Part shown: piece after piece, positions 4,472-23,742 of the stretch | How positions within the stretch are numbered: the first letter of the stretch is position 1 | Layout: every line of letters starts with the position of its first letter | IMG/VR virus record: IMGVR_UViG_3300047323_000304 | Span: 1-64,000 of that record | Source: a virus | Length of the DNA stretch: 64,000 nucleotides | Direction: 5' to 3' (one strand) | The notes under the pieces: generated by a model | What the model saw: the letters and a program-made list of their open reading frames with translations, nothing else | The model's database searches: none | Told to the model about the DNA's origin: nothing | Program-made: the position numbers and the translations under genes

Positions 4472-6085
4472 TTGGAAGAAAAGAATAAAAAGTTAGGACA
4501 ATTTAAAATGTCTTTGAATTCATTAGAAACAGTCCCAAGTGACCCAACAATTTTAAAAAGTGACATAGTAATATTTGACTTTGAAAAAAGTGGAAATAAT
4601 CAAGTGATTACTAAAGAAGTAGCACTAGATAATATGAAATTTTTAATAGGTAAGAGACTATGTTGTAAATATATTAATAAAGAAGATAATGGTGGAGAAT
4701 TAGATGCTCTGGGAACACATGAACAGTATGAAACTGCTAATAGATCTGGAGATGATGTAATTTATACAGATACTGAAGGTATTGGATTTATAGAAGATGT
4801 TTATATTGGTACATATATAAATGATAATGGGATAGAAAAAGAAGCTGTCATAGGAAAATGTATATTTTGGTGTGATGACCATTATTCAGATATAGTAAAT
4901 TTACTTAAACTATGGATTTCCAATAATATTAAAATTCATTTTTCTGTAGAATATTATTATTTTAATTATTTAATTAACGATGGAGTTGAATACATTCAGA
5001 GTCCAATTTTATTTAATGCTTTAACAGCTTTAAATAGTGAGGATAGGGGTGATGCAATTGAAGTATTGCCAGCATATAATTGTGCAACATTGACAAGCTT
5101 TAATGAATTAAAAGACCAATGGAATAAAGCAGTAAATAGTTTACAATCTAGCGAAAATCTAGGTTCTAATAAATTAAAACAAAATAACAACCAAAAGGAG
5201 GAAATAAAAAAAATGGAAAATATATTTTTAAACGCAATGAAGGCAAATAATCAACTTTCATTTGGAGATATTAGAGATAAAATATATGAATCATTAGCAT
5301 CGGTTATGATAGCTGAAGAATACAACAGTCTTTGGATTGGAATGTATGACGTATATGAAGATTTCTTTATCTATGATACAAGAGAAGGTGATAAGTACGT
5401 AAATTATAAGGTGGTTTATTCTAAAGCTGATGATGATACAATAACAGTGTCTTTGGATAGTAAAGAAAAGGTTGAATTTCAACGTGCTTATGTTTCAGTA
5501 AATGCATTACTAGAACTTGAAACTTCAAAGAATGCGTTAGTTGAATTGCAAGAATCTAAAAATGCTTTAGAAACTGCCACTTCTAAAATTGAAGAATTAA
5601 CACAAGAAAACAAATCTTTAAATGAAAAGGTGGTTGAAAAATCAAGTAACTCTAAAGTAGATACTGAAAAATTTAATGAATTGACTAATAAACTAGTATC
5701 TTTAAATTCATTAGTATCAGAAATGCAACCAATTGTTGAAAAATACAATGCAGAAGTATTTGAAAAATCTTTTAATGATGCAAAAGAGTCTTATAAAAAG
5801 AAATTTACTAGTGTAAATGCTTTGGAAGTATTTGATGAAGAATCAACACAAGAATTAATTAAAGAATCTATTAATTCTGTAAAAGAAAAAGCAGACAAAG
5901 CTAAATATAGTTTAAATGCTTTAATCGTTGAAAGTATTAAACCAATAGAAAAAGATATTGATACAGATGATATTATGTCAAATGTACCTAAAATCAGTAT
6001 TAACCAAGTTATTAAATCAGAAGATACTGAAAAATTGGTTAATATCGAAGAAAATGTCTTATCAAAATATGGACTAAACTATTAA
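4472..6085 (+). CDS. Prohead protease/scaffold fusion (YonD-like)
   Basis: N-terminal protease-like half (LGTHEQ, GFIEDVY, IHFSVEY, FNALTAL) and C-terminal coiled coil; internal SD and in-frame ATG at 5213. Confidence 0.7.
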   Translation: MEEKNKKLGQFKMSLNSLETVPSDPTILKSDIVIFDFEKSGNNQVITKEVALDNMKFLIGKRLCCKYINKEDNGGELDALGTHEQYETANRSGDDVIYTDTEGIGFIEDVYIGTYINDNGIEKEAVIGKCIFWCDDHYSDIVNLLKLWISNNIKIHFSVEYYYFNYLINDGVEYIQSPILFNALTALNSEDRGDAIEVLPAYNCATLTSFNELKDQWNKAVNSLQSSENLGSNKLKQNNNQKEEIKKMENIFLNAMKANNQLSFGDIRDKIYESLASVMIAEEYNSLWIGMYDVYEDFFIYDTREGDKYVNYKVVYSKADDDTITVSLDSKEKVEFQRAYVSVNALLELETSKNALVELQESKNALETATSKIEELTQENKSLNEKVVEKSSNSKVDTEKFNELTNKLVSLNSLVSEMQPIVEKYNAEVFEKSFNDAKESYKKKFTSVNALEVFDEESTQELIKESINSVKEKADKAKYSLNALIVESIKPIEKDIDTDDIMSNVPKISINQVIKSEDTEKLVNIEENVLSKYGLNY

Positions 6086-13895: not shown

Positions 13896-13914
13896 TAAAT
13901 TAAATGCTGAATAT

Positions 13915-13940
13915 ATGAACATCTTTAATTAGGTGTTCAT
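13915..13940 (+). terminator. Hairpin after the major tail gene
   Basis: ATGAACATCT/AGGTGTTCAT stem. Confidence 0.6.
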
Positions 13941-14010
13941 TCTTGAGTATTTAAATAAAATATAAATAATAATAATTGTTATTTTCACAAATGTGTGTTA
14001 ATATAATAAT

Positions 14011-14106
14011 GTAGGATAAATAAGGAAGTCATGAGCCTTATTGAAAAGGAGTATTCCGAACTCCCTTCCTATATACATAAAAATCGGAAAATAAATTCAA
14101 CGGAGG
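14011..14106 (+). ncRNA. Putative structured cis-regulatory leader, copy 1 (three-way junction plus pseudoknot)
   Basis: P1 14011-16/14067-72, P2 14019-25/14036-42, GAAA junction, P3 14048-51/14061-64; loop TTCCGA pairs with TCGGAA 14084-89 or with CGGA at the SD. Confidence 0.6.
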
Positions 14107-14114
14107 AATTAATA

Positions 14115-15701
14115 ATGGAGGACATGGAATATCAACAAATTATACAACGGTTTAAAGAAGAAAACAAAGAATTAATTGAAAGTGGTAAATGTAAGAAGAT
14201 ATTTTTAGAAAATTTACCTAAAAGAGGGAAATTAATAAGTTGGAAAAATAGCATAGGATATAAAATATATTTTATATATGAGAATATAGAAGGATTTATA
14301 GAAATAATAGAACTAAATAAAGATGCTATAAATGTAATTGTGGAATATAAAGGAACACAGTATAAAATATCTACACCATCTTTATCAGATTGTAGAATTG
14401 GTGTAATTTTAGGAAAGATAACAAAAGATTTTAAAATAGAAATTGGAACAAAATTTAAAGATAATAGAAGAGATATTGTAATAACTGATAGAGAATACAG
14501 ATTGAAAGAAAAAATAAATAAACAAGGTTATCAAAGTATACTTAATGAAAAATGGTATAAATACACTTGTAATGTATGCGGTTGGACGGACGGTGCAATT
14601 GCTGAATCAGATTTAAAAGAAGGAAAAGGTTGCTCTTGTTGTTATGGAAGAACTGCCGTACTAGGCATCAATACGATATGGGATACTGATAAATGGATGT
14701 ATTATTTAGGAATATCCGAAGAAGACGCAAAAACACATACTTATAGAAGTAGTGAAAAAGTTAAAGTGACTTGTCCTGATTGTAAAACCATTGAATATAA
14801 AATAATATCAAATATATACAAAAACAAATCAATCTCATGTACCTGTTCGGATAAAATTCCATATGGAGAAAAGCTAACATTTTCATTATTTAAGCAATTA
14901 GGATTGATTTTTAAAACTCAATTGAATAAATCTACATTTAAATGGATTGGAAAATATAAATATGATTTTTATTTTGAGTTAAATGGAGAACCATTTGTGA
15001 CAGAAACGCATGGGCTTCAACATTATGAAGAATGTACTGGAAATTGGAAAAACAAATTGAAAGAACAACAAAAAATAGATAGTATTAAAAAACAATTAGC
15101 TTTAGATAATGGAATTAAAGAAGAAAATTATATAGTAATTGATTGTAGAAAATCAGAACTTAAATGGATTAGAGATAATGAAAATGGTATATTGAATAGT
15201 AGATTAAATGAATTGTTTGATTTATCTACTATTGATTGGGTAGAAGTAGAAAATTTTACTTTATCAAATCTAGTTAAAATAGCTTGTGAACATAAAAGAA
15301 ATAATTCTGAATTAACCTGTAATGATATAGGAACATTAATGGGGTATTGTGATGGTACAATTCGTAAATGGTTGAAACAGGGGAGTCTGAATAAATGGTG
15401 TTATTATAATGCAGATGAAGAACTAAGAAAAAGTACTAGTAAAAATGGGAAAAGTAAAGGAATGCCAACTGGCATATTTAAAGAAGGAATATTAATTGGT
15501 GTATTTGAATCATCTACAGATTTAACAAGGCAATCCGAAAAGTTATTTGGAGTAAAATTTATAAGAAGTAAAATTACTATGGTTTGTAATGGTAAAAATA
15601 AATCTCATAAAGGATTTACTTTTAAGTATTTAACACAAGAAGAAATTGAAGAGTTTGAGTTACGCAATATAAATACAGAACAAACAAAGACATCTTATTA
15701 A
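14115..15701 (+). CDS. Zn-ribbon / PD-(D/E)XK (DUF559/Vsr-like) putative homing endonuclease with NUMOD1-like C-terminus
   Basis: Start moved to the ATG after the CGGAGG SD; CxxC pairs, YKYDFY, ETHGLQHYEE, NYIVIDCRKSEL; C-terminal ITMVCNGKNKSHKGFTFKY. Confidence 0.7.
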   Translation: MEDMEYQQIIQRFKEENKELIESGKCKKIFLENLPKRGKLISWKNSIGYKIYFIYENIEGFIEIIELNKDAINVIVEYKGTQYKISTPSLSDCRIGVILGKITKDFKIEIGTKFKDNRRDIVITDREYRLKEKINKQGYQSILNEKWYKYTCNVCGWTDGAIAESDLKEGKGCSCCYGRTAVLGINTIWDTDKWMYYLGISEEDAKTHTYRSSEKVKVTCPDCKTIEYKIISNIYKNKSISCTCSDKIPYGEKLTFSLFKQLGLIFKTQLNKSTFKWIGKYKYDFYFELNGEPFVTETHGLQHYEECTGNWKNKLKEQQKIDSIKKQLALDNGIKEENYIVIDCRKSELKWIRDNENGILNSRLNELFDLSTIDWVEVENFTLSNLVKIACEHKRNNSELTCNDIGTLMGYCDGTIRKWLKQGSLNKWCYYNADEELRKSTSKNGKSKGMPTGIFKEGILIGVFESSTDLTRQSEKLFGVKFIRSKITMVCNGKNKSHKGFTFKYLTQEEIEEFELRNINTEQTKTSY

Positions 15702-15715
15702 TTAAGGTGTCTTTT
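15686..15715 (+). terminator. Intrinsic terminator
   Basis: AAAGACATCTTA/TAAGGTGTCTTT stem. Confidence 0.7.
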
Positions 15716-22366: not shown

Positions 22367-22402
22367 TTTGATTATAACGCTGAAAGGCTTATAATATAGA
22401 TT

Positions 22403-22518
22403 GTAGGAATGATAGACATTAACAAGGTTCGAAACTTGATTTATGTTGAAAGTGAATTCGACCTCATTTCATTCCTATTTTATATAATGGTCGAAAATAA
22501 ATTATGAGAAAGGTCGAG
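22403..22518 (+). ncRNA. Putative structured cis-regulatory leader, copy 2
   Basis: P1 22403-12/22469-78, P2, GAAA junction, P3 22451-55/22464-68; loop TTCGACC pairs with GGTCGAA 22489-95 or with GGTCGA 22512-17 at the SD. Confidence 0.6.
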
Positions 22519-22524
22519 ATTGTA

Positions 22525-23742
22525 ATGTCAAAGAGAACAATATATAAATATAAAGCAGAAGATTTAATAGAGGGTAAGTACAGTAATATTAAAATTATTA
22601 AACCAATTAGAATTAAATATAATAGTGGAAGAAATGTTAAAGGGTATGAGTATAAATGCTTAAAATGTGATAATATAGATAAAATAACTGAAGCACAGAT
22701 TATTAATCAAAAATGTGGTTGTAATATGTGTTGCCCTAGTCCACAAAAAGTAGTTACAGGAATTAATGATATTGGAACTTCACATCCACATTTAATAAAG
22801 TATTTTAAAAACATTGAAGATTGTTATAAATATTCGTATCAGAGTAATGTATCTGTTCGTGTAATATGCCCTTATTGTGGACAAGAAAAAGATAGAAAAA
22901 TTTATAAATTAAATAAAGAAGGTCTTGCTTGCTCTTGCAACGATAAGGTGAGTTATCCAAATAAATTTATAACAGAATTAACAAAACAGTTAAATATAGA
23001 TTTTGAAACAGAAAAAATATTTGAGTGGTCAGGTTTAAAAAGATATGATGTCTATATATCCAACAAATATGTCATAGAAAATCATGGAATTCAACATTAT
23101 GAAGAATCTCCAAGAGGTCTTTCTTTAAAAAAAGAACAATTAAATGATAAGTTGAAGAAAGAATTAGCTTTAAATAATGGAATTAAAGAAGAAAATTATA
23201 TTGTGATAGATTGTAGAAAATCTGAATTAGAATGGATTAAAGATTCTATATTAAATAGTAGATTAGCATATTTATTTTATTTAGGTAATATTAATTGGTT
23301 AAAATGTCATGAGTTTGCACTATCTAATTTAGTACAAACCGCTTGTGAATATAAGAATAATAATATTAATATGACAATTAAAGACGTAAGTAAAATAATG
23401 GGGTTCAGTACTGATACAATCAGAAGATGGTTCAAACAAGGAAGTAAAATAAATTGGTGTCATTATGACTCTAAAGAGGAAGCTAGAAAAAGTGCAGATA
23501 ATAATAGAATTTTAAAAGAAATAATTTCAATTAATAATGGACTTATATTTGAATCTGCTAGAGAAATAGATAGACAATCAATTAAAATATTTAGAACTAA
23601 ATTGGATTATAGAAATATTTCAGCAGTTTGTAATGGAGTACAAAAAACACATAAAGGATTTCAATTTAAGTTTACACAAGATTTAACTGAAGCACAAATA
23701 AAAGATATTCAAGAAAATGCAAAATTAAATCAAGCAATGTAA
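22525..23742 (+). CDS. Zn-ribbon / PD-(D/E)XK putative homing endonuclease, paralog of 14115
   Basis: KRYDVY, ENHGIQHYEE, IKEENYIVIDCRKSELEWI, ISAVCNGVQKTHKGFQFKF. Confidence 0.7.
   Translation: MSKRTIYKYKAEDLIEGKYSNIKIIKPIRIKYNSGRNVKGYEYKCLKCDNIDKITEAQIINQKCGCNMCCPSPQKVVTGINDIGTSHPHLIKYFKNIEDCYKYSYQSNVSVRVICPYCGQEKDRKIYKLNKEGLACSCNDKVSYPNKFITELTKQLNIDFETEKIFEWSGLKRYDVYISNKYVIENHGIQHYEESPRGLSLKKEQLNDKLKKELALNNGIKEENYIVIDCRKSELEWIKDSILNSRLAYLFYLGNINWLKCHEFALSNLVQTACEYKNNNINMTIKDVSKIMGFSTDTIRRWFKQGSKINWCHYDSKEEARKSADNNRILKEIISINNGLIFESAREIDRQSIKIFRTKLDYRNISAVCNGVQKTHKGFQFKFTQDLTEAQIKDIQENAKLNQAM

Follow-up and report, generated by a model that had tools for sequence, protein, structure and literature searches.

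The window analysed here, a stretch of 64,000 nucleotides of phage DNA, contains two members (14006-14117 and 22402-22527) of a conserved family of 5' leaders, about 110-130 nt long, of which 27 distinct examples were gathered from related large phages (alignment A12). By computation, these leaders have a three-way-junction fold, an apical loop that covaries with two downstream sites, a second site placed on the ribosome binding site (RBS), a promoter and a palindrome in another apical loop. It is likely that the leader acts in cis as a translational brake or switch of the nuclease gene behind it, by pairing of the loop with the RBS in one of two alternative pseudoknots. At the first copy, promoter, leader, ORF and terminator together form a self-contained homing-endonuclease cassette. 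An earlier note, made from the letters of this DNA, had delimited the element as 14011-14106; the element is real, but it extends to the start codon, ending at 14117.

The window is AT-rich (27% G+C); its genes for terminase, portal, virion and tail proteins belong to the structural module of a large phage. The full phage record comprises 193,897 bases (about 194 kb), and the only cultured phage that it matches at the DNA level is a Clostridium perfringens phage; the source is a large phage of the Clostridia type. The promoters, leaders and nuclease genes of both window copies lie on the + strand. Paralogue 1, a probable I-Bth0305I-like homing endonuclease of 528 aa, occupies 14115-15701, with its ATG at 14115, and is followed by a terminator-like hairpin in the terminator scan (15686-15714). 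Paralogue 2, of 405 aa and 41% identical to paralogue 1, occupies 22525-23742. Both match PHROG homing endonuclease families, and Pfam gave no catalytic-domain match for either of the two. The AlphaFold model of paralogue 2 has a mean pLDDT of 87, and its best relevant Foldseek match is the I-Bth0305I catalytic domain (3r3p_A; TM by target 0.65, probability 1.00, E = 0.018), with the DNA-binding part of I-HmuI also among the structural matches. A sequence search of the PDB with the nuclease profile returned a weak match to the same part of I-HmuI and nothing else. I-Bth0305I-like homing endonucleases are of the EDxHD, PD-(D/E)xK type; in the present nucleases six residues (D175, E185, G188, H191, D208 and K211) are invariant or nearly so, and NUMOD/HTH-like domains are present in the leader-headed nucleases.

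In the ORF list, paralogue 1 starts at ATG 14031 (ORF 14031-15701), which is 28 codons too long, since this ATG belongs to a palindrome, UCAUGA, in an apical loop of the leader and is not a start codon. N-terminal extensions from ATG 14031 or from ATG 22504 were considered and discarded, as they are not conserved and are out of frame or stopped in the homologues. Automatic annotation would probably mis-start paralogue 1.

Four nuclease paralogues, each with a leader, were found in the whole phage, and not the two that the earlier note had counted; two of them are inside the window. The leaders of the other two (loci L146 and L147) are at 186658-186776 on the - strand and 190714-190832 on the + strand of the same genome (G000). 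These two genes are divergently oriented, at a distance of about 4 kb. The two leaders share one sequence, which contains the palindrome UAAUUA, the loop AUCAAUC and two copies of the site GGAUUGAU; their first stem is degenerate, and the intermediate covariance model (R2) missed them.

Searches with both proteins and their alignment yielded 108 loci from IMG/VR and GTDB genomes, and the same layout was visible by eye in several upstream regions of the fetched loci. Because MAFFT alignments of the leaders were structurally inconsistent, the family was bootstrapped from a covariance model of one single foreign leader (L006), which was rebuilt twice (R2, then R3); whole phage records were also scanned, which completed the set of 27. 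Both window copies were among the leaders that the starting model recovered (E = 5.5e-4 and 7.6e-3), along with about a dozen more, and every leader found with it runs up to the start codon of a nuclease gene. Searching for the motif by a loose regular expression was abandoned, since the matches in AT-rich DNA were nearly all noise. The leader is present at 23 of 97 homologous nuclease loci, or about a quarter; the nuclease homologue of the nearest cultured relative, the Clostridium phage BG3P, has none. One MAG carries a leader, and no further match was seen in 150 sampled genomes of the same class, for which few candidates per genome were scored. At one locus (L002), a leader was matched at 5179-5286 (E = 5.6e-4), downstream of the nuclease by which the locus had been found; it presumably heads a neighbouring cassette, in which case cassettes cluster. 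In another phage record (L132, 1266-1337) a tRNA gene (Rfam, 41 bits) is found about 160 nt upstream of the leader-headed gene. The earlier note had recognised no named family for the leader, and this holds: neither scanning the window at the gathering score nor three permissive scans, over 25 loci, hit a relevant family in Rfam 15, and full-text literature searches found no paper describing such a leader.

The fold consists of three stems, P1, P2 and P3, around a junction. In copy 1 (14009-14074) P1 is formed by 14009-14016 and 14067-14074, P2 by 14019-14025 and 14036-14042, and P3 by 14048-14052 and 14060-14064; in copy 2 (22404-22477) P1 is formed by 22404-22412 and 22469-22477, while P2 spans 22416-22446 and P3 22452-22467. 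The three-way junction that had been proposed for copy 1 is the minimum-free-energy fold of 14009-14076 (-17.0 kcal/mol, z = -2.8), and that of copy 2 is the centroid fold of its 5' domain (z = -1.6); both copies are matched by the covariance model. Folding of single sequences is only mildly better than for shuffled ones, and the real support comes from comparison. In the structural alignment, whose fold numbers are inflated by the fitting to the model and by the relatedness of many rows, 93% of the cells are paired, and all 25 pairs are changed on both sides, in 201 cells (29 distinct rows); the covariation score is 0.69, as against 0.09-0.14 when the 3' partners are slid by one to three columns, which also lowers the pairing to 46-52%. 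Compensatory changes are numerous between any two members. Because P3 joins the 3' strand of P1 with only 0-2 nt between them, the P1 and P3 helices would stack end to end. A hammerhead-like core was also considered, and by inspection the lengths of the junction strands and their order do not fit it.

In contrast to the stems and the P3 loop, which vary, the strands of the junction (AUAGA and UUGAUAAG or UUGAAAAG) are conserved. This pattern would suit a riboswitch in which the junction binds a small molecule or ion that chooses between the pseudoknots. However, the leader occurs only with homing-type nucleases of several folds and a few small genes of no assigned function, without any metabolic or transport gene, and no riboswitch in Rfam matches it, so that we regard such a role as highly improbable.

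The P3 loop, 7-8 nt long, has two separate complements in the 5' UTR of its own gene in 26 of the 27 leaders. The upstream one, site 1, stops 22-35 nt short of the AUG, with AAUAAAUU immediately after it; the other, site 2, stops 2-12 nt short of the AUG, where it overlaps the Shine-Dalgarno sequence (SD) or the spacer; the distance between the two is fairly constant (14-27 nt). In copy 1 the loop AUUCCGA (14053-14059), which by its complementarity is predicted to be a programmable anti-RBS loop, faces site 1, UCGGAA (14084-14089; duplex of -7.9 kcal/mol), and site 2, CGGAG(G) (14101-14106; -5.8 kcal/mol), which overlaps the SD GGAGG (14102-14106). The coordinates in the earlier note proved correct throughout (loop UUCCGA, 14054-14059; UCGGAA, 14084-14089; CGGA, 14101-14104; SD, 14102-14106). 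The complementarity of this loop to the SD is present as described, but amounts to only 5 bp including one G-U pair. In copy 2 the loop is AUUCGACC (22456-22463), site 1 is GGUCGAA (22489-22495; -9.8 kcal/mol) and site 2 is GGUCGAG (22512-22518; -9.3 kcal/mol), over a weak SD, AAAGG, and the spacer; with UUCGACC in this loop, the compensatory changes that had been reported between the copies are confirmed.

Across the family the loop, site 1 and site 2 covary through about 17 different sequences. Besides the sets UUCCGA / UCGGAA / CGGAGG and UUCGACC / GGUCGAA / GGUCGAG of the window, there are loops with the same complement at both sites (CUCCAAU with AUUGGAG, ACUAACC with GGUUAGU, AUCAACC with GGUUGAU, and CUCAAUC with GAUUGAG), as well as the set UAUCUACC / GGUGGAUA / GGUAGAUA. 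On average the second-best site scores 6.26, compared with 3.98 for foreign (non-cognate) tails and 3.65 ± 0.28 (maximum, 4.39) for shuffled loops, although the relatedness of many rows means that such shuffle statistics overstate independence. The view that the RNA is under selection, and that its loop can pair with a spacer repeat or with the RBS, therefore holds for the 27 leaders at large. According to RNAduplex, site 1 pairs more strongly than site 2 in 21 of the 27 (means of -9.9 and -8.2 kcal/mol; sign test, p = 0.006); the role of site 2 as an SD may by itself explain why it is the poorer complement. A hairpin that would present the SD in its loop (AAUAAAUU with AAUUUAUU) was rejected as a general feature; it is perfect in two leaders (L050 and L036) and weak or absent across the 27 (mean z = -0.37).

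A promoter directly precedes the fold. In copy 1 it is, exactly as the earlier note had placed it, TTGTTA (13976-13981), a 17-nt spacer and TAATAT (13999-14004), here seen to be preceded by TG, and in copy 2 it is TTGATT, 16 nt and TATAAT (22368-22395). In the family, a sigma-A-type match whose -10 element ends 2-8 nt before P1 scores at least 9/12 in 21 of the 27 leaders and at least 10/12 in 15, and random 62-mers from the same loci reach these scores in 7.6% and 1.4% of cases. From this spacing the RNA is predicted to start at P1. Between the upstream virion gene and the promoter of the first cassette, an 8-bp hairpin (UGAACAUC ... GGUGUUCA) followed by a U-rich run is found at 13905-13950, and this is probably the terminator of the virion gene.

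The octamer AAUAAAUU after site 1 (14090-14097 in copy 1, 22496-22503 in copy 2) is a copy of a phage-wide motif and may be an internal promoter or a signal for processing. This motif, AATAAATT, lies between sites 1 and 2 of the leader but is not specific to it, being found genome-wide 15-35 nt upstream of at least 50 start codons, on the coding strand in each arm of the 194-kb phage. Among A5T3 8-mers none is commoner before SD-led starts than AATAAATT, which has 29% of its copies in that position versus 12.7% for such 8-mers overall, and it is often lengthened to AATAAATTATAAA (examples are at 5168, 7786, 30476, 39891, 56268 and 57829). It looks like a phage-specific promoter or RNA-processing signal, and AATAAATT/AATAAATTATAAA recalls the T4 late promoter, TATAAATA.

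The genes behind most of the leaders encode I-Bth0305I-like nucleases, among which the N-terminal domain is of at least two kinds, and other leaders precede GIY-YIG/NUMOD nucleases (L122 and L128), other homing-type genes (L139, L141, L142 and L132), a protein of 132 aa (L117) and a protein of no assigned function (L118). The same site, AUUGGAG, is common to I-Bth0305I-like genes (L050, L072 and L036) and a GIY-YIG gene (L128), and UCGGA is found ahead of five different types of protein. Conversely, closely related nucleases carry different loop and site sequences, as is seen in two genes with near-identical N-terminal domains (L072 and L120). Because the loop and site sequences are shared by unrelated proteins and differ among close relatives, the RNA does not track the protein behind it. 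This argues against both of the roles that had been suggested for the leader, namely autoregulation by the encoded nuclease and service as the RNA partner or guide of that nuclease.

The same evidence bears on the idea of a protein operator, by which both sites and the loop sequence would be bound by the nuclease, or by some other protein that binds DNA or RNA, with the protein repressing its own promoter or mRNA. There is a precedent in I-TevI, which represses its late promoter via an operator resembling its homing site (PMC2988022). The promoter-like AATAAATT is flanked by sites 1 and 2, and the nucleases have NUMOD/HTH-like domains. However, one site sequence serves unrelated proteins (AUUGGAG, UCGGA), near-identical N-terminal domains are associated with different sites (L072, L120), and the inverted copy always lies in the apical loop of a covarying hairpin, as is expected for RNA pairing and not for a DNA operator; this explanation is therefore very unlikely. 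A guide or structural RNA of the kind that omega RNAs represent for IscB and TnpB would account for the adjoining nuclease gene and for the variable loop. Yet that loop is only 7-8 nt long and matches the RBS of its own gene, not a foreign target, the leader serves unrelated nuclease folds, and the proteins have DNA-binding domains of their own, which makes a guide extremely improbable.

The P2 loop has a different character. In copy 1 it is AAGUCAUGAG (14026-14035), with the palindrome UCAUGA at 14029-14034, and in copy 2 it is GUUCGAAA, with UUCGAA at 22428-22433. A palindrome of at least 6 nt is present in the P2 apical loop of 22 of the 27 leaders, whereas shuffled loops give 2.0 on average and 7 at most. 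There are eight different ones (GUCGAC, UCAUGA, UUCGAA, UCGCGA, UUGCAA, UAAUUA/AUUAAU, UGAUCA and GUUGCAAC); in one phage all five leaders differ in their palindrome, as do all four of another phage. Since a hexamer cannot fully pair with itself within one loop, the conserved self-complementarity points to the pairing of two RNA molecules, that is, to dimerisation of the leader through P2. Several of the palindromes, however, consist of A and U only (UAAUUA) and would kiss only weakly.

These features can be combined into a mechanism for the proposed translational brake. The transcript would begin at P1 and fold into the three-way junction, whose P3 loop would serve as a programmable anti-RBS element. 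Site 2 is where the 30S subunit binds, so that pairing of the loop there should keep the subunit off and block initiation; the arrangement follows from the anatomy as a putative anti-SD and SD-mimic pair, and the loop pairing would be expected to lower translation. Pairing of the loop with site 1, a decoy about 20 nt upstream of site 2, would leave the RBS free. As the two pseudoknots are mutually exclusive, the leader would set or switch the amount of nuclease, and both the toggling of the RNA and its direction are our inference. Because site 1 is the stronger, nearer and first transcribed of the two sites, a simple equilibrium in cis would favour the open state, with most of the mRNAs translatable. 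Yet the complementarity of site 2 is conserved, and some condition must therefore remove or occupy site 1.

Three triggers are candidates for this. One is dimerisation through the P2 palindrome, which would sense the RNA concentration and might allow loops to be swapped between the partners. The linker from P1 to site 1 measures 6-16 nt and, by rough geometry, must span some 15-17 stacked base pairs, so that reaching the loop in cis would be tight. A second candidate, alternative or additional to dimerisation, is a new 5' end at AATAAATT, made by a promoter or by cleavage, which would part the junction and the decoy from the RBS and the ORF. The third would be release of the junction as a trans-acting RNA, like c4 of phage P1 or CI of phage P4.

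Carried further, the third candidate becomes a different explanation of the whole leader, as an antisense RNA acting in trans. The junction would be freed by termination at a U-rich tract after P1 or by processing near AAUAAAUU, and this small RNA would then pair with site 2 of transcripts, whether full-length or short, perhaps in the form of a kissing dimer holding sites 1 and 2 together, with site 1 as a sponge or second anchor. The strong promoter directly ahead of the fold, the single loop with two repeated targets and the fairly constant spacing of the sites (14-27 nt) would all fit this, and the palindromic loop would give a two-headed dimer. Repeated antisense targets resembling sites 1 and 2 exist in P4 (seqA/seqC) and P1 (a1b1/a2b2). 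On the other hand, no intrinsic terminator was called after P1 by the scan, and a U tract is not universal and is absent in copy 1; both targets are downstream of the RNA instead of flanking it; neither C4 nor int-alpA of Rfam matches the leaders scanned; and in cis the sites of the loop are always close by, at a high local concentration. We therefore consider the trans-acting form unlikely.

Within the cis brake, one specific version deserves mention as a tentative possibility, in which the leader is a re-programmable riboregulator that works without any protein and responds to its own RNA concentration. The monomer would mask its own RBS because the decoy is too close to P1 to be reached in cis, and at high dose two leaders would kiss via P2 and swap their loops onto the stronger decoy of the partner, freeing both RBSs. 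If this were true, the cassettes of one phage would act independently of each other by virtue of their different palindromes and loop/site sequences, and the leader would be a portable, dose-gated switch travelling with selfish nuclease genes.

Homing endonucleases must be kept at a low level and made at the right time, or else they harm the genome that carries them, and we know of means of achieving this only in T4-type phages. The leader appears to solve this with RNA alone, in a portable form that moves from one nuclease family to another, unrelated one. In the T-even phages, RNA structures that sequester the RBS control homing endonuclease genes, including those of I-TevI, I-TevII, I-TevIII, segB and Aeh1 mobE, and for I-TevI, segB and mobE a late promoter separates the inhibitory part from the RBS and so yields transcripts without it (PMC2988022). 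The present leaders resemble these in that the genes are selfish nuclease genes whose SD region is complementary to an upstream RNA element (here in 26 of the 27 leaders), and in that a phage promoter-like motif, here the putative promoter AATAAATT, lies between the inhibitory element and the RBS. In T4, however, the structure is a local hairpin, which is weak and not general here (mean z = -0.37), whereas the three-way-junction loop would reach the RBS as a long-range pseudoknot. The leader also adds a decoy target, a palindromic loop and its own sigma-A-type promoter, and its loop and site sequences are re-programmed from copy to copy.

The c4 antisense RNA of phages P1 and P7 and the CI RNA of P4 (Rfam C4, RF01695) are small branched RNAs made from the same transcript as their target, with loops complementary to two repeated sites, one of which is at the RBS. 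The leaders share with them a loop complementary to two repeated sites, one at the RBS, in the same transcript. However, the C4 model does not match the leaders of the window or of the homologous loci, and the sites flank the RNA in c4 and CI but are both downstream here. In addition, one loop of the leader is antisense and the other is self-complementary, and the context is that of homing endonucleases rather than phage immunity. For int-alpA (RF02996; Weinberg et al. 2017) there was no gathering-score match in the window, and at looser limits the window copies (E up to 10) and 23 homologous loci (E up to 1) gave no match either; the int-alpA and C4 scans together covered about 24 distinct leaders.

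With regard to the P2 loop, the nearest likeness is to another kind of virus. The dimerisation site (DIS) of HIV-1 is a kissing loop, in which a self-complementary 6-mer flanked by purines lies in an apical loop of 8-10 nt. The leaders likewise have a purine-flanked, self-complementary 6-mer in an apical loop of 8-10 nt, the sequence of which varies while the self-complementarity is kept. Here, however, the RNA is a phage mRNA leader whose dimerisation is predicted from sequence, and some of the palindromes are all A-U.

In short, masking of the RBS in homing-endonuclease mRNAs is a known principle, and the architecture of the leader that would apply it here is uncatalogued. The leader would add a well-supported family to the RNA catalogues and provide a natural example of orthogonal riboregulation, its programmable pairing, decoy and self-complementary loop resembling the parts of engineered toehold or anti-RBS riboregulators.
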